NCBI GenBank assembly: GCA_964497315.1
Contig: CAZCCH010000004.1
Coordinates: 18,307-82,306, forward strand
Direction: 5' to 3'
Source: an uncultured Planctomycetia bacterium
Lineage (GTDB): Bacteria > Omnitrophota > Gorgyraeia > Taenaricolales > CAZCCH01
Length of the DNA stretch: 64,000 bases
Shown: positions 1,362 through 21,668 of the stretch, piece by piece
Layout of the letters: each line of letters opens with the position of its first letter
Numbering within the stretch: position 1 is the first letter of the stretch
Position numbers and translations under genes: made by a program
The notes under the pieces: generated by a model
Seen by the model: only the letters and a program-made list of their open reading frames with translations
Databases searched by the model: none
Told to the model about the DNA's origin: nothing

Positions 1362-3376
<2,015 letters not shown>

Positions 3377-3402: not shown

Positions 3403-4434
3403 CTATGGTTTTATCTCTCTTAAAAACTTGGCAGCATCTTCTGGTGAAGTTGAGTTAATATAAAACCCAGTACCCCACTCAAAACCTGCAACCCTTGTTA
3501 AGCGTGGTATGATTTCAATGTGCCAGTGATAATCACGTTCTATTGTTGTCCAATATCCAGTCTTCGCCTTAGTTCTAAAAGGTGCTGTATGCAAAACAAA
3601 ATTATATGGTACATCCTTTATGAGCCTGGATAATTTCAACAAGGCCAATTTTAAAACTTTTGCAAGTTGTTTTGTCTGTGCCTCTTCCATCTTATGAAAA
3701 TCACAAGAATGTTTTGTGGGTAATATCCACATTTCAAAAGGAAATCTGGAAGCAAAGGGAGCAAGTATCGCAAATCCGTCTTGTTCGGTTATTAGGCGCT
3801 CACCACTTTTTAGCTCTTGCTTTATTATATCGCAGAAAATGCAACGTTCTTTATAATCAAAGTACTGCCTTGCACCATTTAGTTCTTCTTTTACCCGCTT
3901 TGGGTTAACTGGCATAGCCATTAATTGAGAACGGGCATGTTCAATACGGCCGCCACCTGCAATCCATCCGTAATTTTTAAACAAGAGCACGTACTTTAAT
4001 CTCTCATCTTTTTGAAGCTCTGTAATTCTGGCAATATAGGTTTTAATTATTGACTCTACCTGTCCAATGGGCAATTCTGCAAAGTTTGAGGTGTGTTCAG
4101 GTGTTTCTACAATAATTTCATGAGCACCCACGCCATTTATGACATCATACATCCCAACACCCTGTCTATCTAATTCACCTTCTTTTTCCAACATGGGCGC
4201 GATACTTGGGACCACTCTTACATTCCAACCTGGTTTATTGGGTTTTGAGTTAGGTTTTCTTATTGCGAATATCTCAGGTGGAGTATGTTGTTCATTGTGT
4301 TCACAGAAAGGACAAGGCCCTGGCCATGGCCTCTGCTTTTCTTTTATGAGTTTATAATCGTTAGGTCGTCCCGCGCGTTCTGTGGCGATTATAACCCATC
4401 TGCCTATTATCGGATCTTTTCGTAATTGTGGCAT
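3403..4434 (-). CDS. GalT-like HIT-family nucleotidyltransferase, tandem paralogue 2.
   Basis: The product is 343 aa, with CPFCEHNE, an HARSQLMAMP triad and the N-terminus MPQLRKDPIIGRW. Its domain layout is colinear with the 2378..3376 product. Confidence 0.75.
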   Translation of the reverse strand: MPQLRKDPIIGRWVIIATERAGRPNDYKLIKEKQRPWPGPCPFCEHNEQHTPPEIFAIRKPNSKPNKPGWNVRVVPSIAPMLEKEGELDRQGVGMYDVINGVGAHEIIVETPEHTSNFAELPIGQVESIIKTYIARITELQKDERLKYVLLFKNYGWIAGGGRIEHARSQLMAMPVNPKRVKEELNGARQYFDYKERCIFCDIIKQELKSGERLITEQDGFAILAPFASRFPFEMWILPTKHSCDFHKMEEAQTKQLAKVLKLALLKLSRLIKDVPYNFVLHTAPFRTKAKTGYWTTIERDYHWHIEIIPRLTRVAGFEWGTGFYINSTSPEDAAKFLREIKP

Positions 4435-4452: not shown

Positions 4453-5394
4453 TTAATTGCCTAATGTGTCCCCTGTTTTTAAATCATGGCCTGCCAAAAA
4501 TGCAGCAATATCCATTTGCTTTGAGTTAGCAGGTTGCAATCTATTTATCTCTAAAACCTCAGAACCTGTTGCGATCTGAAGTTTATTATCCTTTTTGGAA
4601 ACCACTTCACCCGGCTTTTTACCTTCTGCTTTTATTGCACTTATTCTTGCCTCCCAAACCCTAAGAAGCTTACCCTTTAAAAAAGTGTGTGCAATTGGCC
4701 AAGGAATAAAAGCCCTAACTCTGTTGTGTATTTGCCTGGCAGACATCTTCCAGTCAATTAATCCATCCTGCTTTTTTAATTTAGGTGCGTAAGTTGTCTT
4801 ACTTTCATCCTGCGGAGTGAAGGTTGCGCGTCCTTTTTCTATGGAATCTATTGTTTCTAACAGCAAGTCTGCGCCTGCCTGAGCTAATTTTTCTGATAGG
4901 CTAAGATAAGTATCGGTTTCTTTTATGGGAATTTGGGGACTCTGGGCAATAATGTCACCTGCGTCCATAGTTTGGTTCATTCTTATAATGCTAAGTCCTG
5001 TGGCCTTCTCACCATTTACTATTGCCCAGTGCATAGGGCTTGCACCCCTGTATTTTGGAAGAAGGGAACCATGCATATTTATACAAGATTTATCCGGTAA
5101 AGTCAATACTTTATTACATAATATATGACCATAAGCTATAACACAGAAAAGATCTGCCTTATATGCTGCTATATTTTCAATGAACTTTCCAATTGAAGGA
5201 TCTGGTGGTTGATATATATCTTTTATGCCATGTTTTAACGCCTCTATCTTTATTGGGGGTTGGGATAGCTTCAGATGGCGTCCTTTTTTTCTATCAGGCT
5301 GAGTTACTACAGCCAAAACCTCATGTTTGGAGGCTACTAGTTTTCTCAAGCTTGGAATGGCAAATTCTGATGTCCCAAAAAATATTACTTTCAT
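4453..5394 (-). CDS. fmt: Methionyl-tRNA formyltransferase.
   Basis: The product is 313 aa. It has the formyltransferase core HGSLLPKYRGASPMHWAIVNGEKATG followed by the Fmt C-terminal domain. Confidence 0.9.
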   Translation of the reverse strand: MKVIFFGTSEFAIPSLRKLVASKHEVLAVVTQPDRKKGRHLKLSQPPIKIEALKHGIKDIYQPPDPSIGKFIENIAAYKADLFCVIAYGHILCNKVLTLPDKSCINMHGSLLPKYRGASPMHWAIVNGEKATGLSIIRMNQTMDAGDIIAQSPQIPIKETDTYLSLSEKLAQAGADLLLETIDSIEKGRATFTPQDESKTTYAPKLKKQDGLIDWKMSARQIHNRVRAFIPWPIAHTFLKGKLLRVWEARISAIKAEGKKPGEVVSKKDNKLQIATGSEVLEINRLQPANSKQMDIAAFLAGHDLKTGDTLGN

Positions 5395-7397
5395 TATGTT
5401 GGATCCACGTCTATTGTTAAACGAACTCCTGAATACCTAGGGCACTGTTTTAATGTCTGTTTCAGGTAAAAGCGTGCATCTTTGACATCTTTTGCCCTTA
5501 TGAAGACATTCCATCTATAGTGCATCTTTAATCTTGGGATAATTGCAGGTGCGGGACCCGTTATGTGTATTTTTTTATTAATGGATTTGGCCTTTGCGAC
5601 TACTGATCTTAGAAGACTGGCAAAGTTAGAGGCTTCTTTGCTAGTCTTATCATGGTTTCTCCCCTTTACCGTAATGCATATTATATGGGTAAAAGGAGGA
5701 AGTTTCAAGCTTTTTCGCTGCAGAATCTCTTTTTTATAAAATTCTGCGTAATCATGTCGACTGGCTGCTGCTATGCAATAATGCTTTGGTGTATAGGTTT
5801 GCACTATGACTTTTCCTTGCACGTGCCCCCTACCTGCCCTGCCTGCCACTTGAGTCAAAAGGCTAAATGTCCTTTCATCTGACCTAAAATCAGGTATGTG
5901 TAAAGCAGTATCTGCTGATACAACACCCACTAGGGCAACCTTTGGGTAATCAAGGCCCTTGGCAATCATTTGCGTTCCTATAAGAAGTTGAATTTTGCCT
6001 TTTTGGAAATCCTTCAGTATTTTTTCATGACTACCTCTTTTTCGTGTAGTATCAGTATCCATCCGTTCAATTTTTGTATCTAAAAAGAGCCTGTGCATCT
6101 CAGATTCAACCTTTTCTGTACCCATTCCAAAATAGTTTATATGTGCACTCTTACATTCAGGGCACATATGCGGAGGAGCTATTTTATAATTGCACCAGTG
6201 ACATATTAGTTTTTTATCGCAAAAGTGATATGTAAGTGTCGTACTACAATTTTTACACTTAAGTACAAACCCACATTTTTTACAATGCATATATGTAGAA
6301 AACCCCCTCCTATTTAAAAAAAGGATCGCTTGTAAACCTCTCTCTAAAATATCCCTTACATTTTCTTCTAATATTTTTGAAAATATAGAGAATTTCTTTA
6401 GGTTGTATTCATTTTTCATATCGATTATTTCCACCTTCGGTAAATCTTTTTCTTTTATTCTTTCTGTAAGGCGGGCAAGTTTATAAATATTCTTTTCTGC
6501 CTTATAATAAGACTCCAAAGATGGAGTGGCACTGCCTAATATCACTACTGCCTTTGATAACTTCGCCCTGTAAATAGCAACATCTCTAGCGTGATACCTT
6601 GGTATGTCTTGCTGTTTATATGTATTCTCATGTTCTTCGTCTACTACAATAAGCCCGATATTTTTCAATGGTGCAAAAATAGCGGATCTTGCACCAACAA
6701 CAATTCTTGCCTTTTGCTCTTTAATCTTCTTCCACTCAGTAAATCTTTCACCGGCAGTTAAACGACTGTGTAAAATTGCTACCTCTTCTTGAAACCTTGA
6801 CTTAAATCTTTCAACAGCCTGAGGGGTAAGAGATATCTCAGGAACAAGCACAATGCTTGAGCGCCCTTGAGCTAATGCAGAACCTATTGCCTGTAGGTAT
6901 ACCTCTGTCTTCCCGCTACCGGTTATGCCGTGTAGCAAATAAACATGATGTGTGTTGGTGTTTAAATCATTGCAGATTGCCCGCAACGCCCTATCTTGCT
7001 GAACAGTAGGTTTTAAATCCCTTGTTGGTTTAAACTGGCCTATTGCGCTAGGTTTTCTTTGCTTTATGTTGCTTTTTCCCTTCTTTAGCCCCCCTGGAAT
7101 AACCGCCTGTATTGCTTCACCCCAACTGCAAAAATAATACTGTGAAATCCATTTAGTCAACTCGAGCAGTTCTTTATCTAAAATAGGTTCCTCATCAATA
7201 ATTGAATGAATAGGTCTGGTTTGCTTTAACACAGTTTTATCTGAAAGGCCTACTATATAACCCACTAATTCTCTTGTTTTAAAAGGTACCCATACCCTCT
7301 TGCCAATTGCAGCAAAGTCAACTAATTCATCTGGTATGGAATAATCAAAAGGGCCTTCTACGGGAAGACCCACTACAACTTTAGCAAACCTTTTCAT
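5394..7397 (-). CDS. priA: Primosomal protein N' (PriA helicase).
   Basis: The product is 667 aa. It has a Walker A GITGSGKT, a DEEH box (VVDEEHENTY) and a Cys-rich zinc finger CKKCGFVLKCKNCSTTLTYHFCDKKLICHWC inside the helicase core, which is PriA-specific. Confidence 0.9.
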   Translation of the reverse strand: MKRFAKVVVGLPVEGPFDYSIPDELVDFAAIGKRVWVPFKTRELVGYIVGLSDKTVLKQTRPIHSIIDEEPILDKELLELTKWISQYYFCSWGEAIQAVIPGGLKKGKSNIKQRKPSAIGQFKPTRDLKPTVQQDRALRAICNDLNTNTHHVYLLHGITGSGKTEVYLQAIGSALAQGRSSIVLVPEISLTPQAVERFKSRFQEEVAILHSRLTAGERFTEWKKIKEQKARIVVGARSAIFAPLKNIGLIVVDEEHENTYKQQDIPRYHARDVAIYRAKLSKAVVILGSATPSLESYYKAEKNIYKLARLTERIKEKDLPKVEIIDMKNEYNLKKFSIFSKILEENVRDILERGLQAILFLNRRGFSTYMHCKKCGFVLKCKNCSTTLTYHFCDKKLICHWCNYKIAPPHMCPECKSAHINYFGMGTEKVESEMHRLFLDTKIERMDTDTTRKRGSHEKILKDFQKGKIQLLIGTQMIAKGLDYPKVALVGVVSADTALHIPDFRSDERTFSLLTQVAGRAGRGHVQGKVIVQTYTPKHYCIAAASRHDYAEFYKKEILQRKSLKLPPFTHIICITVKGRNHDKTSKEASNFASLLRSVVAKAKSINKKIHITGPAPAIIPRLKMHYRWNVFIRAKDVKDARFYLKQTLKQCPRYSGVRLTIDVDPT

Positions 7398-9186: not shown

Positions 9187-10089
9187 TTATTTTTTTATAA
9201 TTTTAGCAATTTGGCGGATGTGCTCAGGGGTACTACCGCAACATCCTCCGATGATGTTAATCTTTAGATTTAATAATTCCGGCAAGACCTTTGTGAAATC
9301 TTCTGGTGTTTCGGTAAAAATAGTTTTATCATTTTCCAGCTTAGGCATACCTGCATTTGACTGGGCAATAAGAAATATATCGTTTCTTTTTAACTCATCT
9401 AGTCGTTTTCTCATTAATTCTATGACTTTTACCATTTGTTTTATGCCGCATCCACAGTTTGAACCCATTATCTTAACACCCATATCAAGCATCTTATCGA
9501 CTGCCTCATCAGTAGAAACCCCCATCATTGTTTTACAGATGCCCGGTTGAAATGTCATGCTAGCTATCACTGGAAACTCGCTGCCAATGTTTAAGGCGGC
9601 TTCTTTGGCAGCCATAAAGGCTGCTTTTAATTCTCCTAAGTCAGCCATCGTTTCAATAATAATACCATCTACACCGGCTTGTACAAGTATCTCTGCTTGG
9701 TTTTTAAATACGTCAAAAAGTTCTTCGTACTTTAAATTTCCCACGGGTTCTATAAATTCCCCTGTTGGACCTATATCACCAAGCACATAGGTAGAATCTC
9801 CTGTTACTTCTTTAGCTAATTGCACAGCTTTCAAATTAAAGTCACTAAGTTTACCCTCAAGTCCTGCACGTTTTAACTTAAGGCTATTTGCTCCAAAGGT
9901 ATTTGTTGTGATAATGTCACACCCTGCATCAACATAGCTTTTATGGATAGATTTTATAACCTCAGGATGTGATAAATTCCACTCTTCTGGAAAATCACCT
10001 GTCTTTAGGCTTTGCTCTTGCAGGGCAGTACCCATAGCACCATCACAAATTAATACTTCTGACTTTAGCTTCTCTAATAAAGGTTTCAT
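9187..10089 (-). CDS. Stand-alone homocysteine S-methyltransferase (Hcy-binding) domain protein.
   Basis: The product is 300 aa. It has the N-terminal ICDGAMGTALQ and the C-terminal zinc-binding GGCCGSTPEHI motifs of the S-methyl_trans (MetH N-domain / MmuM) fold. Confidence 0.75.
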   Translation of the reverse strand: MKPLLEKLKSEVLICDGAMGTALQEQSLKTGDFPEEWNLSHPEVIKSIHKSYVDAGCDIITTNTFGANSLKLKRAGLEGKLSDFNLKAVQLAKEVTGDSTYVLGDIGPTGEFIEPVGNLKYEELFDVFKNQAEILVQAGVDGIIIETMADLGELKAAFMAAKEAALNIGSEFPVIASMTFQPGICKTMMGVSTDEAVDKMLDMGVKIMGSNCGCGIKQMVKVIELMRKRLDELKRNDIFLIAQSNAGMPKLENDKTIFTETPEDFTKVLPELLNLKINIIGGCCGSTPEHIRQIAKIIKK

Positions 10090-10092
10090 AGG

Positions 10093-10635
10093 TCAGTCCT
10101 TTTTTAAAATAACCTCTTTAACAGCCTGGAACAAATCTTTACATGTTTCATCTGGTTGAAACTCTAAAGTATCTAAATTCTCTTTCTTTGTTTTTCCGGA
10201 AAATACAAGTATCGTCTTGCAACCTAAATTCTTACCAGCCTCAATATCTCTTTCGTCATCACCTATGAAATAAACATCTTTAAAGCCACTGCTGAGGTTA
10301 CCTGCTGCTTGTTTAAAAAGTGTTGTTTTAGGTTTTCTGCAATCACAGTCATCTTTATGGGTGCAATAAAAAACACCCGCTATCTCACCTTTGTTCTCTT
10401 TAAGTCCTGAAAGCATCTTTTGTGTTATTTTATCTAAATCCGCTTGAGTGAAAAGCCCTTTACCGACACCCCTTTGATTTGAAATAACATATATCTTATA
10501 CCCTGCCTCTGTAAGTAGTCTTATTGCCTCAAGAGAACCGTCTATAAAATGGAAATCTTTTGCGTTTGTGACATACTCTCCATGACCAGGATATACATTT
10601 ATTACACCATCTCTATCGAGAAAAATTATCTTCAT
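10093..10635 (-). CDS. gmhB: D-glycero-D-manno-heptose 1,7-bisphosphate phosphatase (HAD-IIIA).
   Basis: The product is 180 aa. It has the HAD motif I FLDRDGVIN and the GmhB-type zinc site CTHKDDCDCRKP. The length fits GmhB. Confidence 0.75.
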   Translation of the reverse strand: MKIIFLDRDGVINVYPGHGEYVTNAKDFHFIDGSLEAIRLLTEAGYKIYVISNQRGVGKGLFTQADLDKITQKMLSGLKENKGEIAGVFYCTHKDDCDCRKPKTTLFKQAAGNLSSGFKDVYFIGDDERDIEAGKNLGCKTILVFSGKTKKENLDTLEFQPDETCKDLFQAVKEVILKKD

Positions 10636-11344: not shown

Positions 11345-12820
11345 TTAAAGGGGTAATGTTCCTTGGTTACTACTATATTTCTTTCGTATCGCAGGTAATA
11401 CTTCCTCACGGGTTCGCTTTAAATCATGGATTGTGTCATTATCATTCCAGAGAAGTCCAGTTATGCTTTCGATGCACAGCCTGTGCCCTTTGAACACCAG
11501 ATGTTCAAATGCTTCCATAAGGTACGCCCAGGCATTGCCTTCTCTTATTATTCTGTCTATCTCATTTATCAAAACCGCGGCCCCCCATCGGTTAAACTTG
11601 GCAATACCGATGAATTCACCGTAGGCCTTATCGGAAGATATGCATTTATGCTTCGGGAAGGGCAAAGAATAGTAGTCTTCCGGAAGGGTCATTATATTCC
11701 CTGCCGCGCAGATCTTTTCATCTTCCTCGTCACAGGCCTTTTCGTCTGCCCCCAGCACAATTTCATTAGGGTTTCTGATAATTTTTTTCAATATCTCGGG
11801 CTCAAAAATTATATCCCCATATATGACTATAAAACCCTTATGTAAAAATTCGCGTACGAGCCAAAACGTAATTAACATATTTGAACTCTCGTACCAGGGA
11901 TTATATACTATATTGATATCCGTCTTCTTTAGTTTCTCGTAAACAAAATTACGCACAAGGGCATCTCCCTTGCCAGTTGCGATGATAATATCCTCATCGT
12001 GAATATTGCATTTTTTAAACGCATCTAACTGTGTTTCTAAGATAGTTGTTCCTCCTGCATCCACTAAGCAGGTGTGGTGGGTTGCAGTCAAAGCACCCAT
12101 CCCCAAAGAAGGACCGGCAGAAAGAAGCACTATCTTGTATTTATCCTCCAGTTCTCTTATTATTTTTTTTACTATATCTACAGAGTGCTGGGAATACTCG
12201 CCGATGGCCGTTTCTTCGGAAAGCATGATAAAATCGGAACCGTCGGAAATAGCGTTGGCTATATCTACTACTTCTGACTTTGTAGGTTCTGATTTCTCTA
12301 CCATGGACAGAAGGAACTCCGTAGCTACAATTACCAGTTTCCCCTGTCTATTGCATTTACGTATAATCCTCTTCTGCGCATGCGGCAATTTCTCTATGCC
12401 TATTGCCGTAGCCAAATCTCCCCTGTCTATCATCACTACATCAGAGAAAAAAATAATGTTATCTAAATCTTCCAGCGCCTCGGCAGTTTCTATTTTGGCT
12501 ACAATCTTTATGTCAAGTCCTTTGAATTGATTCCTGAATTTTTCTACATCCTTATGGTGCTTAACATATGACAGGGCCACATAGTGTGGATTTATTTGTT
12601 TTGTTAGCCTAAGCAGATCTTCAAATGATAAGTTGTTAGTCCGAGTCTTTTTTCTTTCAGTAGGCAAGTCTAATAATAACTGATACCCCCATGCATCTTT
12701 TATTTTAGCTGCCAGGCTATGTATTTCTTCTTTCGTTCCAAAAGCACAGTTTATCCTGCCCACATCTATTCCCTGTAGTTTTTCTGTGTAAGGACTAACA
12801 GTTGAAATTATTTTGACCAT
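11345..12820 (-). CDS. Fusion protein: pyruvate-kinase-like TIM-barrel (PEP-binding) domain (N) plus LicC/MobA-like nucleotidyltransferase domain (C).
   Basis: The N-terminal ~240 aa align to the PK barrel (IVAKIETAEALEDLDNII..MIDRGDLATAIG; VIVATEFLLSM; PTKSEV.DIANAISDG.DFIMLSEETAIGEY, compared with PK MLSGETAKGKYP). They lack the PK B- and C-domains. The C-terminal ~240 aa carry an NTP-transferase glycine loop LLSAGPSLGMG and a LicC-like NPWYESSNMLITFWLV....IVIYGDIIF segment. Confidence 0.55.
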   Translation of the reverse strand: MVKIISTVSPYTEKLQGIDVGRINCAFGTKEEIHSLAAKIKDAWGYQLLLDLPTERKKTRTNNLSFEDLLRLTKQINPHYVALSYVKHHKDVEKFRNQFKGLDIKIVAKIETAEALEDLDNIIFFSDVVMIDRGDLATAIGIEKLPHAQKRIIRKCNRQGKLVIVATEFLLSMVEKSEPTKSEVVDIANAISDGSDFIMLSEETAIGEYSQHSVDIVKKIIRELEDKYKIVLLSAGPSLGMGALTATHHTCLVDAGGTTILETQLDAFKKCNIHDEDIIIATGKGDALVRNFVYEKLKKTDINIVYNPWYESSNMLITFWLVREFLHKGFIVIYGDIIFEPEILKKIIRNPNEIVLGADEKACDEEDEKICAAGNIMTLPEDYYSLPFPKHKCISSDKAYGEFIGIAKFNRWGAAVLINEIDRIIREGNAWAYLMEAFEHLVFKGHRLCIESITGLLWNDNDTIHDLKRTREEVLPAIRKKYSSNQGTLPL

Positions 12821-12825
12821 AACTT

Positions 12826-13983
12826 TCAGCCTTTCCCAGTGAGAATGTCAGTAATACACCGAGCTGCTATATCTGAAGACTGCCCGAAGGCATATATACT
12901 CTCATTCCTAAGCTGGGCAATGCGTTGTCTATTGGTGTCAGTATGTGCAATTAACCTGGAGATAACCTTAGGCACCATATCTAGTTTGTCCGGAACAACT
13001 ACCTCTCCTATTTCAGAACGGATAGAAACCTCTAACGGCTCAAGTCCCAATTCTTTATAATTGGGGTTTTTGGCCGCAACAGGTACATCAATAGAAATAA
13101 CCGGTTTCTCAGTACCAAAGGCATATTCAAGAGCAACACCTGAGTAGTCGCATATCAGACAGTCAGCACGAATCAGCGAATCATCAGTGGCTACGGATTT
13201 CTCCAAGATGAAATGCGGGTTTGATCCAAATTTAAAAACAAGCGAGGCTATTAACTCCGGAGAACGCTTTGTGGTTTCTGGATGCGGCCTCATAATTACT
13301 GCAAAACCTGCTTTTAAGAGTATGTCGGTCAGGCGCTCACCGCAGCTTTCGAGAAGATTACTATCTCCCCACGAAGGCGCAATAAGAACCATTGTCTTTT
13401 CCTCCGAAGATAAATCCTTTGCCGATAAGTATTTTTGATACGCAGCATAGATTCGTTCCAGCCGGTAATATCCACCTTCAAGGAGCTTTTTGGATTTTAG
13501 CCCAGCAAGTTCCTCACGCCTGCGAATTTCTTTCATGTGGTAGGGGCCAGGGCACAATATATAGTCATAATGATCATAAGACCCTTCGCGGAATTTCATA
13601 TGCGTGCTGGCGAGGGAGTGAAAAATATAAACATACTGGACCGGATTGTATGAGCGTTTAAGGTGAAACTGATTGAGGTCAGTCAGGGTAATAACAAAAA
13701 CCCTGCAATTTACAAAGAGCATAAAAACAGCAAGTAATTTGTCTAGGTAAAAGGCATTTATCTTCTCTGTCTGTTTTTCAAAAATCGGGTCGTTAAAATC
13801 TGAGGTAATATAACATAGGTTTCGACTGTATTTTTCCGTAAGCTCTGCAATTACACCCTCAAAGTAGGGGTAATAACCCTCGTGTTCTGAATAAAAAATT
13901 ATTTCCTTTTTCTTTATCGGTGTCCTGAAGAAAAACCTACAGAAATCTGCAATTTCTCGAAAAAAATTGGATGTGCGATACAA
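12826..13983 (-). CDS. TagB/TagF-family CDP-alcohol (CDP-glycerol-type) phosphotransferase.
   Basis: The product is 385 aa. Glyphos_transf-like motifs include VLIAPSWGDSN (compared with ILYAPTWR) and IMRPHP (compared with KPHP). The size and layout match teichoic acid primases and polymerases. Confidence 0.6.
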   Translation of the reverse strand: MYRTSNFFREIADFCRFFFRTPIKKKEIIFYSEHEGYYPYFEGVIAELTEKYSRNLCYITSDFNDPIFEKQTEKINAFYLDKLLAVFMLFVNCRVFVITLTDLNQFHLKRSYNPVQYVYIFHSLASTHMKFREGSYDHYDYILCPGPYHMKEIRRREELAGLKSKKLLEGGYYRLERIYAAYQKYLSAKDLSSEEKTMVLIAPSWGDSNLLESCGERLTDILLKAGFAVIMRPHPETTKRSPELIASLVFKFGSNPHFILEKSVATDDSLIRADCLICDYSGVALEYAFGTEKPVISIDVPVAAKNPNYKELGLEPLEVSIRSEIGEVVVPDKLDMVPKVISRLIAHTDTNRQRIAQLRNESIYAFGQSSDIAARCITDILTGKG

Positions 13984-14062: not shown

Positions 14063-15247
14063 CTATTTAAAAATATTCCCTTTCTGCCTACTCTGTTTTT
14101 TTATCCACTGGCTAATTTCTGGCCTCATGAATTCTTCAGGCGGAGTCATTCCTTCGCCAAACATCTTGCGTATCTTTGTCCCACTTATCTGGATTCTGCA
14201 GGCCTGGGGGTGAGAACAAGTTTTCTCTGTAGCTACTGCTCTACACTTTTTGCAATAAAATGGGCCGTTGAACCGCAACGGAGCAATGCCCAAGTCAGTG
14301 AAATTATCAAAAATTTTATGGGCCGCGTAGGTATCGTAGTAACCTTTTACTCCGGCATGATCCCTTCCTATAACTATGTGCGTGCAGCCGTAATTTTTCC
14401 TTACGATCGCATGAAACAGTGCTTCCCTTGGACCCGCAAACGCCATCTTCATATTAAGCGGCGCCAAAAGCACCCTTGCCTTGGGGTAATAATGTCGGAT
14501 AAGAAGCCTATAACTTTCAAGAACAAGAGTGGGAGAAAAATCGCCTTCTTTTGTCTGGCCAACTATGGGGTTTATGAATAAACCGTCCACAAATTCAAGC
14601 GCGCACCTCTGTAGGTATTCGTGTGCCCTGTGAACGGCATTTCTCGTATGAAACGCACAGATTGTCTTCCAGCCAAGCTTTTTAAAAATCTTTCTCGTCT
14701 GATGCGGGTCCATTATCATGTCCCTGAAGGGCAGCTTCGGCTTGTTTAGCAATATAATCTCACCGCCTAAAAGCACATCGCCCATTGCATCTACGGCTGC
14801 AACGCCGGGATGATCCGGATTTGCTGTACCATAGACAGCTTCACACCTCTGGGCTTTTTCATGTACGAATTTTTCTTCTACAAAAATCACCGCCACGGCT
14901 TCGTTTTGCGTGCTTGTAATAAGTAATTGTTGCCCGGACTTTATTCCGGAGGCATCTTTTTCGCTGACCGAGAACGTTACGGGTATGCTCCAAGGGGTTC
15001 CGTCTGAAAGTCTGCTTCTTTTAAGTACCGAAACATAATTCCGCTTTTTCATAAATCCGGTAAGCGGGCTAAAACCACCAACAGCAATCTGCTCTATATC
15101 AGTAAGTACATTGGTATCAACAGCAATTTTTTGCAGCTTTGCAACGTGTGCTAAAATTCTCTTTCGCTTTTTGCCTGCGGCAACTCTGTTTACTAATATG
15201 TTCTTCATGTCACATAAAAGGCCTCCCGTCCATATCCTTGAATTCAT
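14063..15247 (-). CDS. sat: Sulfate adenylyltransferase (ATP sulfurylase).
   Basis: The product is 394 aa. It has GFSPLTGFM, AFHTRNAVHRAHE (a QTRN-HRAH-type motif with Q replaced by H) and IGRDHAGV motifs. There is no fused APS-kinase domain. The start codon is uncertain; an internal Met (MKNILVNR) is an alternative. Confidence 0.8.
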   Translation of the reverse strand: MNSRIWTGGLLCDMKNILVNRVAAGKKRKRILAHVAKLQKIAVDTNVLTDIEQIAVGGFSPLTGFMKKRNYVSVLKRSRLSDGTPWSIPVTFSVSEKDASGIKSGQQLLITSTQNEAVAVIFVEEKFVHEKAQRCEAVYGTANPDHPGVAAVDAMGDVLLGGEIILLNKPKLPFRDMIMDPHQTRKIFKKLGWKTICAFHTRNAVHRAHEYLQRCALEFVDGLFINPIVGQTKEGDFSPTLVLESYRLLIRHYYPKARVLLAPLNMKMAFAGPREALFHAIVRKNYGCTHIVIGRDHAGVKGYYDTYAAHKIFDNFTDLGIAPLRFNGPFYCKKCRAVATEKTCSHPQACRIQISGTKIRKMFGEGMTPPEEFMRPEISQWIKKQSRQKGNIFK

Positions 15248-17285
15248 CCTCGGGAATACCTAGGATTTTCAATATCGTGGGTACCACATCAACTATTGCC
15301 GGATTTGCAGCTTCTATCTTTCTGTTGGTAAAAAGAACCCCGGGCAAAAGGGACGGATCAGAGAGATGGTCGCCGCTCCAGGCCTTTTTGTTATCTTCAA
15401 TTATTTCCTCAGGCACGCTGCCTAAAGCGGTCTGCCAGGAAGAGCGGTAACCGATGTTATATCCAACAAGCAAGTCCGGCGCCTCATTTATATAAGGCCC
15501 CCAGAAAATCTCGTCTCTGTTATAGACTTTGTTTATTACATTGCTGGCGAATTTTTCATCATAAAGGGAGGTCAGCCTATCTGCGATCTCTTTTTTTATT
15601 TTTTGCGTCTCGGCCCCGGGCCGTACGCACCCCTTTGCCTCCCGGCCGATCTGATTAACAAAAATTTCACCAAAACCTACGCTGTAGGCTGTGGTACGAG
15701 ACCAGTCTACATCCTTAAAAAATTCGCCTCCTTTAACCGCGGCTGGATCTTCCAGGAAAAGAAACCCATTTTCCCTAAGCCATGTGTTCAAATGAACCGA
15801 TCTCCGAAACGTCTTAAATCCATGGTCAGACAAAACTATCAAAAGCGTATCCTCATCCGTCTTCGCAAACACCCTGCCTAGAATATTATCCATCCTCTCA
15901 TACATCTTATCAATCACACCCGAGTAAACAACAGCTAATTCTTCGTCATATGCCGGATGCTGAGGGTCTATAAAACGCCAGAATGCATGCTGAATGAAAC
16001 TGGGCGAGTCAAGATAATAGAAAAAAACGCCTTTTTTGAAACGCTCAAGTTCGATATCAAGCATTTGTTGTTTTTCCTCAATAATCATATCGGCCTGTTC
16101 TAAAAACGCAACTTCATCAAGTTTATTTTCATTTAGCGCCCATGTATCATGAGGCATGCCCAAGGTATGATAGAGGCCCAGCCTATCTGCGAGCTCTTTT
16201 GAATAACCAGCAGGGTATGATATCGCAAAAGGTGGATCCCGGGGGTCAAAATTGATGGGGGAGATATAAAGTTCGAATTCCGGTGTTATGCTCTTGAGGT
16301 AAAATTTACATATCCCCTTGACCCTCTTGAAAAAATTAATTTTAAAAGTAAAGGCCTGCCATTGACTCCACTGTTTAGGCCTAAGCATGAACTGGTTTCC
16401 TCCAACATCAACAGTTGCAGTTTGGGCCTGTTCATCTATAGCCACCTTCATGGGTATTATTATATCATTTGCTTTTCTTAAAGATGTGTCCACGGGGCCG
16501 GATAAATAGGTATTTATATTAGCTCCTCTTTTGGTAACTTTAATGAGTCGACCTCCAATATCCTTGCCTTTTTCAATGTCTGCTGTGGTATAAAAAGAGG
16601 ATGTACCCATAGTCCCCCGTATATCCGGCACGCCCATACCTGAAAGCAAGCGGCCGTAAACCTTATCAGGTGGAAATGCATTGGGGCAACACAGAAGGAC
16701 TGTGGGAATTTTATATTTACGCGTAATATTCCAGAAAGGCGTACCGCCAGCTACCCTCTTAAGCTTCTTTGTATCTTTATCAACCCGGCTGAAAGCCAAA
16801 TATGGCATGTATGTATTTGGGTCACGTTTTAGGAAACCATAGGCACCGTGTTTACCTGCATTGGATCCGGTAGCAAAGTTGGTCCAGGCCACTAGCGATT
16901 CCGCAGGATAAGAAGTAGCTAAACGCGCATAAGTACCTTGCTCTTTCAGTTTTTTGAAATTGGGAAGCTTGCCTTCTCCCATCAACCGTTCCATAATCTC
17001 AGGCTCCAGACCATCCAACCCAATTATGACTATTTTTTCTTTGCAGCCCGCCACTTCTTTTGTGATATTTATATAAAACACAACGCCGGCAATAACAGCC
17101 GTTAGAATTAACAGCCATAACAGCTTCTTTCCCTTGAGGAAAAATCTTAAAATGCGTCTCGCCCAGAAAAGCAGCCCGCCAAGGAAACCTATTATGACTC
17201 CCAGGATAATCGAACCCATGGTAAAAAACGGCAGTCCCACTCCTGGATCTATGTATCCAAAGTTTATTAGTCTAAATATCTCCAT
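15210..17285 (-). CDS. Membrane-anchored alkaline-phosphatase-superfamily enzyme, type I phosphodiesterase / nucleotide pyrophosphatase (NPP)-like.
   Basis: The product is 691 aa. Two N-terminal hydrophobic helices are followed by the PF01663-type IVIIGLDGLEPEIMERL opening and metal-site-like residues. The gene overlaps sat by a few codons. Confidence 0.6.
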   Translation of the reverse strand: MEIFRLINFGYIDPGVGLPFFTMGSIILGVIIGFLGGLLFWARRILRFFLKGKKLLWLLILTAVIAGVVFYINITKEVAGCKEKIVIIGLDGLEPEIMERLMGEGKLPNFKKLKEQGTYARLATSYPAESLVAWTNFATGSNAGKHGAYGFLKRDPNTYMPYLAFSRVDKDTKKLKRVAGGTPFWNITRKYKIPTVLLCCPNAFPPDKVYGRLLSGMGVPDIRGTMGTSSFYTTADIEKGKDIGGRLIKVTKRGANINTYLSGPVDTSLRKANDIIIPMKVAIDEQAQTATVDVGGNQFMLRPKQWSQWQAFTFKINFFKRVKGICKFYLKSITPEFELYISPINFDPRDPPFAISYPAGYSKELADRLGLYHTLGMPHDTWALNENKLDEVAFLEQADMIIEEKQQMLDIELERFKKGVFFYYLDSPSFIQHAFWRFIDPQHPAYDEELAVVYSGVIDKMYERMDNILGRVFAKTDEDTLLIVLSDHGFKTFRRSVHLNTWLRENGFLFLEDPAAVKGGEFFKDVDWSRTTAYSVGFGEIFVNQIGREAKGCVRPGAETQKIKKEIADRLTSLYDEKFASNVINKVYNRDEIFWGPYINEAPDLLVGYNIGYRSSWQTALGSVPEEIIEDNKKAWSGDHLSDPSLLPGVLFTNRKIEAANPAIVDVVPTILKILGIPEDEFKDMDGRPFM

Positions 17286-17300
17286 ATCGTCAATCCTGTT

Positions 17301-19199
17301 TTATTGTAAATATCCAAGTCCTTGTAATTGCCGTTTTGTTGTTTCGTCAATCTTCACCGACTCCGTAGAACCCTCCTTGGACTTAGAACCCATTTTTTCT
17401 GAAAGTATCATATTTTCAAAAATATAATTAACTATCAGCCCGTGACACATCTCGGTGGCCTTCGGCTCTTTGCCGATAAGATTATTCTGTTCTTGAGAAT
17501 CTATATCTATATTGTACAACTCTCGTTTTTTACTCCATAGGTTATATATGTATTTCCATGGCGGGATCCTCACGGAAACCAGATGGCTGTCAGGAAGCAT
17601 GAATGTAGGTCCTAATTCACTGAAGGCTGGCCTTGGGCTTGCCTTTTGCGGTTCCTGCGACAAAATCCCCTGCATATCCATGCCCTGCATGATATCTTCC
17701 GGCTCCAGATCCAGGACAGACAATATAGTAGGCATAATGTCTATACCCTGCACCTGTTCTTGAAGCTTTAGGCCGGAAGGAAAAACTCCAGGCAATCTCA
17801 TTACAAGAGGTATCTTTATATCATCTTCATATAAGAATTCCCCGGGTTTTATCTCATCTAACTCATCCAGACTCCTACCATTATCCGCACTAACAATAAT
17901 AAGGGTCTTATCCTCTATTCCCAGCTTACGCAACTTTTCCATCAATAGACCTATATGATAATCTGTATACCAAACCTGAACCTCATACATAGAAACTTCC
18001 GTTTTGCTGGGATGTGCAGAACCTACTTCATCGGCATATACAAAATCGGTATTTGATAAATCGTGCCTTATATGTGGTCCGTGAACATCCATATAATGAA
18101 GATATAGGAAGAAATTTTTGTCTTTGAATTTATCTATCCAATTAATGGCTTCGGCGGTAAGTAAATCCGCCGTTGGATAACAGCTGGGAGGAGTTTTTAA
18201 TAGGTCTGAATGCGTCCCCAGCTTATAATACAAGTCGTACCATCTAGATGCATCTCTCTCTATAAGGTTTACATAAAAATCAAAGCCCTGGTCAAGATTG
18301 AACTGCTTCGAAACCCATGGATCGGTCATAAAAGCGCAGGTTGCATATCCATTTGCCTGCAATACTTCAGCAATAGTAGTCATCGACTCAGGAAGACCTT
18401 TATTTTCATCGACTACACCGTGAACTGAGGGATAGGTGGAGGTAAAAAGAGATGGAACTAAGGCGTGCGTCCAGTTGGTCTGGGTTATGGCATTTAAAAA
18501 AACCGTTCCTTCCCCTGCAAGAACATCTACGTTAGGACTTAAGCGCTTTAATTGTCCGTAAGCTCCTAATTTAGCTGGAAGTAATGAATCTACAATTATC
18601 AGAATTACGTTTAAGTCTTCACCTCGCGCAAATTCCGAAAAGGCCTTTTTAAAAGAAAATCCGCGCTGTACATATCCTGACGCCAACCACTCCCCAGATA
18701 GAAACAGCACTAGGATAATGCTTATGGTTATAATTCTAATGGGGCGGTTGCTTTTTGAAATAATTTTCAATAGCATAAAAAATATAAGAAAAAACAACAC
18801 CGCATATACAACCAGAAGAAAATCCGCAACCCAATGAAAAAGATAGTGTCTGTATCCGAAAAATATATTACTAAGCCACCAGTCAACCGCATACGCGGCT
18901 GCAAAGGAGAAAAACAAGGTAAGGTATATGGATATGAGCCGACCCGTAGAAACTTTTTTCTTGTAAATTAGTCTGGCCGCAACAAATATTAACCCAAATA
19001 CAATCCCGCTAAGGCCGCAAAATATGCCGTAAATCGCCAGGTTGGCTAAAAAGGGGTGTGTGCCTTCTGTAAAATAGAGGTATGGCGAAGCAAATAGCAC
19101 CTTAACCACGCTAATAAAAAACGCGAATGCAACCCCCGTCAAAAGGCCCACGCCTACAGCTTTAATAAAGTAATCTATTTTACTGCGGTATGCCACCAT
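17301..19199 (-). CDS. LtaS/EptA/MdoB-like membrane phospho-transferase (sulfatase fold, Thr nucleophile).
   Basis: The product is 632 aa. About five N-terminal TM helices precede an extracytoplasmic sulfatase-fold domain starting ILIIVDSLLP. The sulfatase signature position reads THALVPS...YPSVHG, with T in place of the formylglycine Cys/Ser. LtaS and phosphoethanolamine transferases have the same substitution. Confidence 0.6.
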   Translation of the reverse strand: MVAYRSKIDYFIKAVGVGLLTGVAFAFFISVVKVLFASPYLYFTEGTHPFLANLAIYGIFCGLSGIVFGLIFVAARLIYKKKVSTGRLISIYLTLFFSFAAAYAVDWWLSNIFFGYRHYLFHWVADFLLVVYAVLFFLIFFMLLKIISKSNRPIRIITISIILVLFLSGEWLASGYVQRGFSFKKAFSEFARGEDLNVILIIVDSLLPAKLGAYGQLKRLSPNVDVLAGEGTVFLNAITQTNWTHALVPSLFTSTYPSVHGVVDENKGLPESMTTIAEVLQANGYATCAFMTDPWVSKQFNLDQGFDFYVNLIERDASRWYDLYYKLGTHSDLLKTPPSCYPTADLLTAEAINWIDKFKDKNFFLYLHYMDVHGPHIRHDLSNTDFVYADEVGSAHPSKTEVSMYEVQVWYTDYHIGLLMEKLRKLGIEDKTLIIVSADNGRSLDELDEIKPGEFLYEDDIKIPLVMRLPGVFPSGLKLQEQVQGIDIMPTILSVLDLEPEDIMQGMDMQGILSQEPQKASPRPAFSELGPTFMLPDSHLVSVRIPPWKYIYNLWSKKRELYNIDIDSQEQNNLIGKEPKATEMCHGLIVNYIFENMILSEKMGSKSKEGSTESVKIDETTKRQLQGLGYLQ

Positions 19200-20228: not shown

Positions 20229-21668
20229 TCAATTAAGCGTAGCCTTTCTGGAATTCAATTTATTAACTATGGACCTTAAATTCTTTCGATAATAAAAGTT
20301 ACACATTGATATGGGGTGATGTTGTATATGATATTTTTTAAAATTTCCCTTATTTAAAGGTCCAACGATCTCTTTTTGGATTTCGTGGGTTAATTCAATA
20401 AACCTATCTGAAGAAATCTTGGTAAAGTTTTGTGTACAATCCGTACAATCATTCCATTCGATTTTATAACCTCTATTCAAGAGTTCTTTATAGGCACATG
20501 TTCCAGGCAAAGGCCAAAACTGGTTGAAATGAGCAAAATACGGCCTTATAGATTTAATAAAATTTGCAGACAGCATAAAATCTTCTTCTGTTTGGTCAAC
20601 ATAACCCTTGATCATATTTGCCCTAAAATTTAAACCTACGTCATGGGCCGCCTTTGCTGCTTCGCAATACCTTTCTACATTAATGTTCTTATTCATCCTA
20701 TTTAGTTCTTGTTGTGAACCTGATTCAAAACCGCATTCAACTAATACACAACCCGCGCTTTTCATTAATTTCAAAATTTTTGCTTTTGCCGCAACAGCTG
20801 TAAGCTGACAAATCCATTTGATCTTTTTATGCAAACCTTTTTTCTTAATCATTTCGCATATAGTCTCTGTTCTTTCCACATTGCTCAAAAACATATCGTC
20901 AGCAAAATAAATATAATCAACTTTGTAAGAGCAGATAATTTTTTCCATCTCTTCTAAGACATAATGTGGAGAATGATATCGCACCTTTCCTGGGAACATT
21001 AATGGGCCTGCACAATAATGGCACCTCCTAACACAACCGCGAGAAGAAAATATTGTTGTATGCTTACCTAGGAGATGTCGTTCTTCAACAGGTTTCAAAT
21101 AAAAGTTCATATTCAATAAACTTCTATCTGGAATAGGAATCTTATCTAAATTTTGTATCATTTCCCTTTTGCCAACAGTGTAGAAATCTTCACCCTTCCT
21201 GCTCCATACTCCAGGCATATCAAAAGAGGGAAGGTTATTGACTATATCTAACATGGTCATCTCTCCTTCCCCATCAACTACTAAGTCTATGTCTGGACAG
21301 CACATCAATGTCTCTTTTGGCTCAGCAGTAGGATGTGGTCCTCCTACAATATTAATAACATTAGGGTGAACTCGTTTAATCTTTTTAGAAAAATGTATAA
21401 CATCATACATAAGAGGTGTAGTAGCACTAAAACCGACAAGTTGAGGCTTAAATGATTTTATTCTTTCTAAAAGCTCTTGGTCTGTTGCGGCCAAGTCGTA
21501 ATTGTTCTTAATCAATAATTCATTCCTATCAGCTATCTTTACCTTATGTCCGTTATTTTGCAAGACTGTGGCAATATAAACTAATCCAAGTGGTGGAAAT
21601 GGGTGGTAACCATGAGAGAATTTATCTATTTTTTGAAGGACCAAAGGGTAAATAAAGAAAACGTTCAT
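20229..21668 (-). CDS. B12-binding-domain radical SAM enzyme (class B).
   Basis: The product is 479 aa. An N-terminal cobalamin-binding Rossmann region (PLGLVYIATVLQNNGHKVKIAD) is followed by the CxxxCxxC cluster motif SRGCVRRCHYC. Confidence 0.8.
   Translation of the reverse strand: MNVFFIYPLVLQKIDKFSHGYHPFPPLGLVYIATVLQNNGHKVKIADRNELLIKNNYDLAATDQELLERIKSFKPQLVGFSATTPLMYDVIHFSKKIKRVHPNVINIVGGPHPTAEPKETLMCCPDIDLVVDGEGEMTMLDIVNNLPSFDMPGVWSRKGEDFYTVGKREMIQNLDKIPIPDRSLLNMNFYLKPVEERHLLGKHTTIFSSRGCVRRCHYCAGPLMFPGKVRYHSPHYVLEEMEKIICSYKVDYIYFADDMFLSNVERTETICEMIKKKGLHKKIKWICQLTAVAAKAKILKLMKSAGCVLVECGFESGSQQELNRMNKNINVERYCEAAKAAHDVGLNFRANMIKGYVDQTEEDFMLSANFIKSIRPYFAHFNQFWPLPGTCAYKELLNRGYKIEWNDCTDCTQNFTKISSDRFIELTHEIQKEIVGPLNKGNFKKYHIQHHPISMCNFYYRKNLRSIVNKLNSRKATLN

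Follow-up and report, generated by a model that had tools for sequence, protein, structure and literature searches.

A Pyruvate Kinase Barrel Fused to a Remodeled LicC/PntC-Type Nucleotidyltransferase Is Linked to ATP Sulfurylase in a Putative Head-Group Activation Cassette

Introduction

The LicA/LicC/LicD system of phosphocholine decoration and the TagD/TagF system, which makes teichoic acid from CDP-glycerol, follow a shared logic in which a kinase, a cytidylyltransferase, and a phospho-alcohol transferase act together. In Campylobacter, O-methyl-phosphoramidate (MeOPN) involves the glutamine kinase Cj1418, the cytidylyltransferase Cj1416, the hydrolase Cj1417, and Cj1415, a kinase resembling adenosine 5'-phosphosulfate (APS) kinase; here a kinase of the phosphoenolpyruvate (PEP)-utilizer family and a nucleotidyltransferase (NTase) lead to a CDP-linked small anionic group. 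Classical sulfation systems combine ATP sulfurylase and APS kinase (NodPQ, CysDNC, or the synthase for 3'-phosphoadenosine 5'-phosphosulfate, PAPS) with a PAPS sulfotransferase and a phosphatase for adenosine 3',5'-bisphosphate (pAp). In the phosphonate (Pnt) pathway, PEP mutase is fused or adjacent to the NTase PntC, as in Tde1415 (PDB 6PD1) and Fom1 (Rice et al. 2019, PMC6697681). Here we describe a fusion of a pyruvate kinase (PK) barrel with a LicC/PntC-type NTase, encoded in a 64,000-nucleotide stretch (the window) of contig CAZCCH010000004.1 (GenBank assembly GCA_964497315.1, positions 18,307 to 82,306, forward strand) from an uncultured Planctomycetia bacterium that GTDB places in Omnitrophota. 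The constant neighbor of the fusion gene is ATP sulfurylase (Sat), and we tentatively propose that the two enzymes make a sulfate-bearing nucleotide donor.

The locus resembles each of these systems and departs from each. Like the Pnt enzymes, the fusion joins a PEP-binding TIM barrel to a LicC/PntC-type NTase; PntC is the best solved relative of the NTase half, and the same TagF-like and Sulfatase-family partners occur in phosphonate clusters. However, the barrel is that of a pyruvate kinase rather than PEP mutase, the Arg and Lys of the pyrophosphate (PPi) site are lost, and Sat is obligatory; neither phosphonopyruvate decarboxylase nor PEP mutase was found in any fusion locus. The Lic and Tag systems supply the second-best solved match (LicC) and the family of the neighboring gene (Glyphos_transf), whereas the kinase-position domain of the fusion is of the PK type rather than the choline kinase fold, Tyr334 and Leu/Met replace the amine-binding acidic residues, and linkage to Sat is specific to the fusion cassette. 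The fusion cassette and MeOPN synthesis both mix sulfate-activation-type enzymes with glycan decoration, and in a Thaumarchaeota contig, genes of a homologous MeOPN pathway precede one for the cytosolic Sulfatase-like protein also found beside the fusion. The fusion loci nevertheless have no glutamine kinase or amidase, their kinase-like domain is PK and not of the pyruvate, phosphate dikinase (PPDK) type, and they encode a sulfurylase instead of an APS kinase homolog. As in classical sulfation, Sat lies in a glycan cluster beside an obligate partner and phosphoesterases recur, but the partner is the PK-NTase, and the window encodes neither APS kinase nor a PAPS-type sulfotransferase. Compared with pyruvate kinase itself (PF00224), the A-domain barrel holds all PEP/Mg2+ residues and the long forms align over the A and B domains. 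In contrast to that enzyme, no member has a C domain, the window clade has no B domain, scores fall far under the equivalog cutoffs, and an NTase is fused.

Results

The fusion is encoded by an uninterrupted open reading frame (ORF) of 491 amino acids at positions 11345 to 12820 on the minus strand, and the ORF listing of the window, Pfam matches, alignments, and a profile match to the PDB establish it as a genuine two-domain protein, a PK A-domain barrel followed by a LicC/PntC-type NTase. An earlier note on this DNA, made from the sequence alone, had described just such a barrel without B and C domains joined to a LicC-like NTase, and this architecture was upheld. The barrel half (residues 1 to 225; positions 12146 to 12820, minus strand) was delimited with Pfam, PDB alignments, and an AlphaFold (AF2) model. 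PF00224 matched residues 70 to 214 (profile positions 182 to 328 of 328; E = 2.6e-44), which is the second half of the profile, and alignments with PKs and homologs extended the barrel to the N-terminal strands. The NCBIfam pyruvate kinase models scored ∼192 bits, under their equivalog cutoffs (TIGR01064, 191.6 bits against 306.4), and the fusion is not a whole-protein equivalog of PK. Alignments with solved PKs and homologs nonetheless showed the PEP/Mg2+ catalytic set of the A domain in place, with equivalents of R73, N75, D113, K270, E272, D296, T328, S362, and E364 (human PKM numbering); R22, N24, D51, K58, K109, E111, D135, S201, and E203 were invariant among fusion homologs. The Lys at the E117 position of the fusion marks the K+-independent PK type. 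The sequence blocks quoted in the earlier note were largely present (VAKIET, MIDRGDL, ATEFLLSM, and MLSEETAIGEY), but its "DG.M..RGDL" in fact reads SDVVMIDRGDL. A generic HpcH/aldolase-type barrel, which that note had named as the contrary outcome, was ruled out by the strong PK-specific matches and the complete catalytic set; a few homologs gave weak PF03328 hits.

In the window fusion, an 11-residue basic loop (DLPTERKKTRT) stands in place of the lid (B) domain, and the NTase occupies the place of the absent C domain; both domains that complete a canonical pyruvate kinase are therefore missing. The AF2 model (pLDDT 89.5, pTM 0.72) retrieved pyruvate kinases only in a Foldseek search of the PDB. 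In the model, ∼4 residues link the last PK helix to the first NTase strand, and a composite PK/NTase active site within one chain was judged unlikely from this short linker.

The fusion belongs to a sizable family. We found 462 homologs with the same two domains and the identical protein on 7 public contigs, which rules out a frameshift or assembly artifact that had merged two genes. The family spans Omnitrophota, Planctomycetota, and Margulisiibacteriota; a genome scan added to the carriers Margulisiibacteriota, others, and the planctomycete Ca. Kuenenia stuttgartiensis, in which the fusion, Sat, and a Sulfatase-like gene form an operon (L019). A form of ∼480 amino acids is found in Candidatus Omnitrophota, which is by this token the probable phylum of the window, and one of ∼580 amino acids mainly in Planctomycetota. 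The long form retains the B-domain insert and aligns over the full A and B domains of canonical PK (E = 1e-84), so loss of the B domain is specific to the Omnitrophota clade; the earlier note was right that the window protein has none, but most homologs keep a complete A+B pyruvate kinase. No family member has a C domain. Public annotations call the fusion "pyruvate kinase," "choline kinase," or "NTP transferase domain-containing protein." In the literature library searched, neither a PK-NTase fusion nor a Sat-PK/NTase cassette was described, and there was no account of nucleoside-phosphosulfate-dependent TagF-like or AlkP enzymes; the earlier note, too, was aware of no such PK-NTase enzyme.

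B-less PK barrels also occur outside the family. Stand-alone proteins of ∼226 to 270 amino acids that consist of the A domain with intact catalytic motifs were seen in DPANN archaea and candidate phyla radiation (CPR) bacteria, and Dehalococcoidia have PKs of ∼385 amino acids with a C domain, no B domain, and a PGxKRRxG loop like that of the window fusion. Loci with B-less PKs include L024, L029, L032, L036, L040, L045 to L047, L059, L085, and others, as well as L023, L025, L027, L035, and L039; MLSEETA is present in all B-less PKs found, being the search pattern itself. To judge from these sequences, a barrel that has lost the B domain may still be capable of PK-type chemistry.

The most constant feature of the fusion loci is a gene that the earlier note had missed as a partner, making no link between it and the fusion. 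Sat (PUA_2 and ATP-sulfurylase domains) is encoded at positions 14063 to 15247 on the minus strand and was identified with NCBIfam, the PDB, and its motifs. It scored 481.7 bits against NF003166 (cutoff, 387), its best solved relative is the ATP sulfurylase of M. thermolithotrophicus (8A8D; E = 1.9e-108), and it carries HTRN, HRAHE, and GRDHAG, so that domains, score, and motifs all identify an ATP sulfurylase. The change from QTRN to HTRN (Gln to His in the sulfate-binding motif) was shared by the Sat proteins of the window, L005, L016, and L093, three of which four loci also have a TagF-like gene. A nonstandard anion as substrate found no support, the motifs being canonical apart from this change in four loci.

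Gene neighborhoods were compared using precomputed annotation of homolog contigs together with our own ORF/BLAST census. In 20 of 20 informative nonredundant loci from three phyla, a PUA_2 plus ATP-sulfurylase gene lay adjacent to the fusion or one gene away (the latter in the window and in L088), and stop and start codons of Sat and the fusion often overlapped. The sole exception was L010, where the fusion is at the contig edge. None of 65 loci with ordinary or stand-alone PKs had Sat. In the window, the order on one strand is AlkP-family gene, Sat, TagF-like gene, fusion, a weakly methyltransferase-like ORF, HAD phosphatase, and others, with gaps of 0 to 79 nucleotides. The conserved neighbor is thus ATP sulfurylase rather than the TagF-like gene that the earlier note had emphasized.

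The NTase half (residues 226 to 491 plus the stop codon; positions 11345 to 12145, minus strand) was assigned by profile comparison with the PDB, hidden Markov model (HMM) scoring, and a residue census. Pfam gave a weak NTP_transf_3 match, under the gathering score (E = 4.6e-4). The profile of this half matched the PntC domain of 6PD1 end to end (positions 4 to 248; E = 3.6e-15), followed by LicC (1JYK) and then IPCT (2XME), and the half scored 195 bits against an HMM of 121 canonical stand-alone relatives. Similarity to LicC/PntC-type enzymes (COG1213/COG4750; NTP_transf_3) extends over its full length, and the LicC-type assignment of the earlier note is borne out by these matches. In the representative library the profile retrieved 709 proteins at E ≤ 1e-30, among which the fusions form a few clusters of their own; the next ∼130 hits were stand-alone NTases of ∼240 amino acids. 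Since canonical relatives are fused to LicD, to TagF-like plus GT2, or to CDP-OH_P_transf domains, the clade is, by its sequence associations, one that serves phospho-alcohol transferases. A second close canonical NTase was present in 1 of 19 nonredundant fusion loci: in L089, from Omnitrophota, the stretch directly upstream of Sat and the fusion (4855 to 6559) encodes a canonical IPCT/IspD-like NTase together with a divergent GAPDH paralog.

The active site of the fused NTase is remodeled. LicC/PntC cytidylyltransferases carry the signature GXG(T/S)R-X4-8-PK. In PntC the PPi site is built by the signature Arg, the alpha-phosphate is touched by the Lys, and alanine mutants of Arg15, Lys25, and Lys153 each had <10% activity left (PMC6697681). 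We compared 106 fused proteins (68 long and 38 short forms) with 121 canonical proteins. The canonical relatives keep AAGxGxR...PK, with Arg in 121/121 and Lys in 118/121, whereas the PPi-loop Arg was found in 4/106 fused proteins, with Gly, Ser, or Ala at the position in 96% of fusions. All 68 long forms have Gly and Lys at the Arg and Lys positions, and none of the 38 short forms retains the alpha-phosphate Lys. The window fusion reads G236-P-S-L-G240 ... H249-T250, with G240 for Arg and H249/T250 for Pro-Lys. It therefore has neither the full signature nor the G-x-G-x-[RK] loop, whose absence the earlier note had named as a refuting outcome, and Thr250 stands where the Lys of "PK" would be. 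Given that the loop and this Lys are lost, a standard reaction of CTP with an X-phosphate is doubtful on sequence grounds. The basic loop of the barrel was excluded as a substitute for the lost Lys, the same loop being present in the B-less A+C PKs of Dehalococcoidia.

Other parts of the site are intact. D336, K369, K392, E402, D462, and D466 are common to the fusions and the canonical relatives; invariant among them are the metal-binding Asp residues (D336, D462, and D466) and the Lys residues that hold the incoming phosph(on)ate (K369 and K392, corresponding to PntC Lys153 and the "EKP" Lys). The fused family additionally fixes D254, W309, Y334, E368, D460, and N461. The acidic residues with which PntC and LicC bind the amine of 2-aminoethylphosphonate (AEP) and choline, respectively, are Tyr334 and Leu/Met in the fusion; judging from these replacements, its ligand is therefore not a choline- or AEP-like cation.

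Immediately upstream of the fusion, separated by 5 nucleotides, is the gene for a TagF-like (Glyphos_transf) transferase of 385 amino acids with a TTG start (positions 12826 to 13983, minus strand). PF04464 matched it above the gathering score (E = 8e-12; 45.2 bits against 22.1), confirming the TagB/TagF family membership that the earlier note had assigned, and no NCBIfam equivalog matched the protein. As the defining partner of the fusion, however, this gene was ruled out: a TagF-like gene is present at 2 of ∼21 fusion loci, namely the window and L005, which do not carry orthologous copies. Its relatives point instead to phosphonate clusters. The ortholog in L093 (38.5% identity over 366 amino acids; E = 1e-96) overlaps a Sat gene in a cluster that also encodes PEP mutase, a thiamine pyrophosphate (TPP) decarboxylase, an iron-dependent alcohol dehydrogenase (Fe-ADH), a Sulfatase-like protein, and a PK-like protein of 190 amino acids. 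A metagenome scan returned at least 464 relatives of the TagF-like subfamily, and among 59 loci of at least 4 kb its neighbors were a transmembrane (TM) AlkP protein (35 loci), an ORF of 57 amino acids (26), a truncated PK-like protein (25), an NTase, often overlapping (18), PEP mutase (10), and Sat (1).

Adjacency of PK-like and TagF-like genes is therefore itself conserved. The 190-amino-acid PK homolog (L093, 9351 to 9923, minus strand, and ∼29 of loci L097 to L176) is truncated and B-less; it keeps RxN, a DLPxGRxK loop, and KIE and lacks the last two strands. Low-GC (∼29%) marine cassettes show the gene set u57, TagF-like, u190, and TM-AlkP u536, in which u190 often overlaps the TagF-like gene. 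Because TagF-like orthologs adjoin, and often overlap, PntC-like NTases and occur with PEP mutase in phosphonate clusters, the analogy with Fom1 and PEP mutase drawn in the earlier note is apt. Its proposal that the NTase feeds the TagF-like enzyme gains support from the same orthologs, but few fusion loci have a TagF-like gene. By analogy, the company of PntC-like NTases and PEP mutase suggests that the donor of the TagF-like protein is a CDP-activated alcohol phosphate.

Across the fusion loci, partner transferases vary: Thr-type Sulfatase-family proteins were found at 9 or more loci, Phosphodiest proteins at 5 or more, CDP-OH_P_transf proteins at 4, and TagF-like proteins at 2. The cytosolic Sulfatase-family partner (∼380 amino acids) forms a small, sharply bounded family with 46% identity between phyla, and it has Thr where true sulfatases have the Cys or Ser that becomes formylglycine. 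It also lies in the phosphonate cluster of L093 and downstream of a CDP-amidate (MeOPN-like) pathway in L090. In that Thaumarchaeota-labeled locus (L090, 2961 to 8158), a PRK05849-type PPDK_N/PEP-utilizer kinase, an amidase resembling gamma-glutamyl-CDP-amidate hydrolase, and an NTase, all homologs of MeOPN genes, precede the Thr-type Sulfatase-family protein; no APS kinase-like gene was found in the annotated stretch. Cytosolic Phosphodiest partners of ∼550 amino acids occur in L003, L007, and L088. A related protein in the window, a membrane-anchored type I phosphodiesterase/AlkP-family protein with two TM helices (15210 to 17285, minus strand; PF01663, E = 1e-30; TM scan), is encoded by a gene that overlaps the Sat start by 38 nucleotides. 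The window also encodes a Sulfatase-family (AlkP) protein with five TM helices and Thr at the nucleophile position (17301 to 19199, minus strand; PF00884, E = 1.3e-41; TM scan), which has an LtaS/EptA-like architecture and weak LtaS/YejM/MCR hits. The CDP-alcohol phosphotransferase of the AIP-synthase/DIPPS type is found at four fusion loci from both phyla. No AlkP-family gene lies nearby in L004, L005, or L017.

Phosphoesterases also recur: PAP2-PHP proteins in Planctomycetota, a PHP protein between Sat and the fusion in L088, a Metallophos protein in L089, and HAD phosphatases in the window and L005. The HAD-IIIA (GmhB-like) phosphatase of the window (10093 to 10635, minus strand; PRK08942, E = 1e-49, just under the cutoff) recurs together with the fusion in L005/L006 (71% identity); it may be a cassette phosphoesterase or part of a heptose pathway, and its membership in the cassette is uncertain. 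The PAP2-PHP protein of Planctomycetota, a membrane protein of ∼620 amino acids, is encoded divergently upstream of the fusion (L004, 7975 to 9834, minus strand, and L001, L007, L012, L013, L016, L017, L020, and L022). It comprises a PAP2 lipid phosphatase domain (LpxE/PgpB-like) and a PHP domain between the last two TM helices, both of which are probably periplasmic. Its PHP domain resembles cog0613-type enzymes (3E0F; E = 5e-13). A role for PHP as a cytoplasmic pAp recycler is weakened by the positive-inside reading, which puts PAP2-PHP in the periplasm; the stand-alone PHP protein of L088 resembles TM0559/CehA-McbA and is not a proven pAp phosphatase.

The domain scan of the 64-kb window took in all 60 ORFs of at least 150 amino acids, apart from 11 that lie over the coding series in other frames. 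Among the scanned ORFs there was neither APS kinase nor PEP mutase nor a PAPS-type sulfotransferase domain, and the annotated homolog loci likewise yielded no APS kinase or PAPS-type sulfotransferase, the rest of the genome not having been searched; the cluster thus does not have the makings of a PAPS-dependent sulfation system. A tblastn search with the L093 PEP mutase found none in the window or in 20 fusion loci, and the scanned ORFs contained no PF13714, which rules out a phosphonate pathway for these loci.

The surroundings in the window form a large cluster of the lipopolysaccharide (LPS)/O-antigen type, with GT2, GT4, and GT9 glycosyltransferases, Wzy_C, DegT, a WecA-like initiator, an ABC exporter, AsnB-like amidotransferases, and several B12-radical-SAM enzymes; GT9, Wzy_C, and a domain of the glucuronyl C5-epimerase type give it an LPS/glycosaminoglycan (GAG)-like aspect. 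A stand-alone homocysteine S-methyltransferase domain protein (S-methyl_trans; 300 amino acids; 9187 to 10089, minus strand), five B12-binding radical S-adenosylmethionine (SAM) genes (20229 to 21668, 26471 to 27877, 27890 to 29311, 46997 to 48442, and 62601 to 63731, the last with SPASM), and many SAM methyltransferases together suggest a dedicated methyl supply or cobalamin methylation for a heavily methylated glycan. At the far end of the cluster, a gene for a D-glucuronyl C5-epimerase C-terminal domain protein (61663 to 62628, minus strand) overlaps the radical-SAM/SPASM gene (62601 to 63731, minus strand); this epimerase domain is typical of heparosan/GAG-type polymers. Tandem GalT/HIT-family paralogs at 2378 to 3376 and 3403 to 4434 (both minus strand) gave GalP_UDP_transf, DUF4921, and Ap4A-phosphorylase-like hits, and their synteny with the cassette region is kept in a related Omnitrophota contig (L005, 20385 to 21434). 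Some members of the GalT/HIT superfamily act on APS/ADP-type nucleotides.

Discussion

That this cassette is of the Lic/Pnt/MeOPN type, combining a PEP-family enzyme, a LicC/PntC-type NTase, and a transferase, appears robust on comparative grounds. That the fusion is a genuine bifunctional enzyme and the signature gene of a conserved cytoplasmic cassette is the best explanation we can offer, although this prediction stands slightly short of even odds. Our interpretation, to which we assign a probability of roughly 45%, is that the cassette activates a head group in the manner of the Lic, Pnt, and MeOPN systems, with sulfate from APS replacing the phosphonate, and would yield a sulfate-containing nucleotide-linked donor. 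Sulfate in the donor is favored because Sat would be pointless unless its APS were consumed and because PEP mutase is absent whereas Sat is obligatory. Sat would make APS, and the fusion would turn APS into the nucleotide-linked, sulfate-bearing donor; these two would suffice for the donor because only they are universal, while the transferases vary. The transferase (TagF-like in the window, elsewhere a CDP-alcohol phosphotransferase or a Thr-nucleophile AlkP-family enzyme) would then install the group, in the window on an LPS/O-antigen-like glycan.

Within this interpretation, the NTase half would handle a nucleoside 5'-phosphosulfate rather than NTP and an X-phosphate, which fits a site that keeps its nucleoside, metal, and beta-group positions but has lost the PPi pocket. 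The specific mechanism we prefer, itself doubtful, is that the NTase half moves the sulfuryl group from APS onto CMP; it is preferred because the downstream transferases are users of cytidine nucleotides in known systems or by context. The PK half, whose PEP site is intact and which in the long forms has a complete ADP-type site as well, would provide PEP-driven phosphoryl transfer, either regenerating NTP from NDP or phosphorylating an intermediate, and so offset the very unfavorable equilibrium of the sulfurylase.

Several points weigh against a sulfate-bearing donor. The swap from APS to CMP needs no PEP and so does not account for the PK half. Most of the cassettes in which the TagF-like subfamily has a truncated PK-like neighbor are without Sat, so the PK-like component may act independently of sulfate. 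The long forms keep the alpha-phosphate Lys and resemble complete K+-independent pyruvate kinases, which fits ordinary NTP chemistry, and the lost Arg and Lys could be made up for by additional metal ions at the gained acidic residues. Adjacency of Sat does not prove that its product is handed over directly. To our knowledge, use of a nucleoside phosphosulfate by a TagF-like, CDP-OH_P_transf, or NTase-fold enzyme is without precedent.

Much of the same evidence can be read without sulfur, along the lines of the earlier note. The PK half might phosphorylate a small alcohol or 2-hydroxy-acid from PEP (or ATP), or present PEP itself, to an NTase that makes CDP-X (CDP-glycerate, CDP-enolpyruvate, or a CDP-alcohol) with a metal-assisted PPi pocket; TagF-like, CDP-OH_P_transf, or AlkP enzymes would transfer phospho-X, and Sat would be nearby only because a separate enzyme sulfates the same polymer. 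The NTase clade and its LicD, TagF-like, and CDP-OH_P_transf fusions are as expected for such a pathway, as are the overlap of TagF-like orthologs with PntC-like NTases, the status of the fused NTase as usually the sole NTase of its locus, the conservation of K369, K392, and the metal ligands, the intact PK site, and the gained acidic residues, which could bind extra Mg2+ in place of the Arg and Lys. We nevertheless think it unlikely. It does not explain why Sat stands by the fusion in 20 of 20 loci, often translationally coupled and even in minimal three-gene operons, nor the loss of two residues whose mutation cripples PntC, IspD, and FrbH; and there is no universal candidate for the other sulfotransferase, L004, L005, and L017 being without a nearby AlkP-family gene. 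An obligate Sat would be accounted for if APS served instead as a nucleotidyl donor, the NTase half moving AMP from APS, with sulfate leaving, to a nucleophile made by the PK half and giving a product of the ADP-X or adenylyl-amidate type, so that sulfate acts catalytically. Loss of the PPi-stabilizing Arg suits a smaller, less charged leaving group, and HIT-family enzymes (EC 2.7.7.51) are known to transfer adenylyl groups from APS. Such a route is improbable, however: it has no net thermodynamic gain over direct use of ATP, the alpha-phosphate Lys expected to be necessary at P-alpha is absent from all short forms, and the downstream transferase families use cytidine nucleotides in known systems.

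Two further explanations give the PK half a larger part. In one, APS held by the NTase-like half would receive a phosphate from PEP through the PK half and become PAPS or an isomer, pulling the sulfurylase forward, with phosphoesterases recycling the bisphosphate. The fusion does hold the gene position usual for CysC beside Sat, the window has no APS kinase, and phosphoesterases (PHP, PAP2-PHP, HAD, or Metallophos) recur, including a cog0613-like PHP domain (3E0F). PK chemistry, however, acts on a terminal phosphate oxyanion rather than a ribose hydroxyl; the ∼4-residue linker would, in the model, place the NTase loop at the far side of the barrel; the PAP2-PHP domain would be periplasmic by the positive-inside rule; and no locus has a classical sulfotransferase. 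We consider a PAPS surrogate quite improbable. Less still can be said for a PK half that is merely a local NTP-regenerating pyruvate kinase, or for an NTase-like half that is a noncatalytic nucleotide sensor replacing the PK C domain. The long forms do have the A and B domains of a complete pyruvate kinase (E = 1e-84 to solved PKs), Dehalococcoidia have apparently ordinary PKs that lack the B domain and carry the basic loop seen in the window fusion, and the NTase sits exactly at the C-domain position, but the polar NTase active-site residues are strictly conserved over three phyla, unlike those of degenerate NTase-like domains, and both the Sat linkage and the transferase partners would be left unexplained. 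This last explanation is very improbable.

Returning to the sulfate-bearing donor, its broadest form would be a sulfation route that dispenses with PAPS, draws its power from PEP, and handles sulfate as if it were a phosphonate: the remodeled PntC-like domain would remount the sulfuryl group on a (cytidine) nucleotide, or otherwise convert APS to a new donor, and TagF-like, CDP-alcohol phosphotransferase-like, or Thr-type AlkP-family enzymes would pass the sulfuryl or phosphosulfate group to LPS-like glycans or membrane lipids. Such a route would be found in Omnitrophota, Planctomycetota (anammox bacteria among them), and Margulisiibacteriota. We advance this extension as unlikely but worth stating. 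If true, cell-surface polymers and lipids would be sulfated in a new way that calls for neither APS kinase nor classical sulfotransferases, and a role could be assigned to several hundred genes that now bear the label "pyruvate kinase" or "choline kinase," along with the "sulfatase-like" genes beside them, in poorly known phyla that include anammox bacteria. Read conservatively, the fusion would be the first PK barrel recruited to a nucleotide-activated head-group pathway, and its NTase family one that does without an Arg/Lys pair regarded as essential in related enzymes. The shared TagF-like and Thr-type Sulfatase-family transferases link phosphonate, phosphoramidate, and fusion-cassette chemistries, which aids annotation of marine phosphonate clusters. 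The cassette probably adds to the nucleotide-activated head-group tailoring systems that decorate envelope glycans or lipids.

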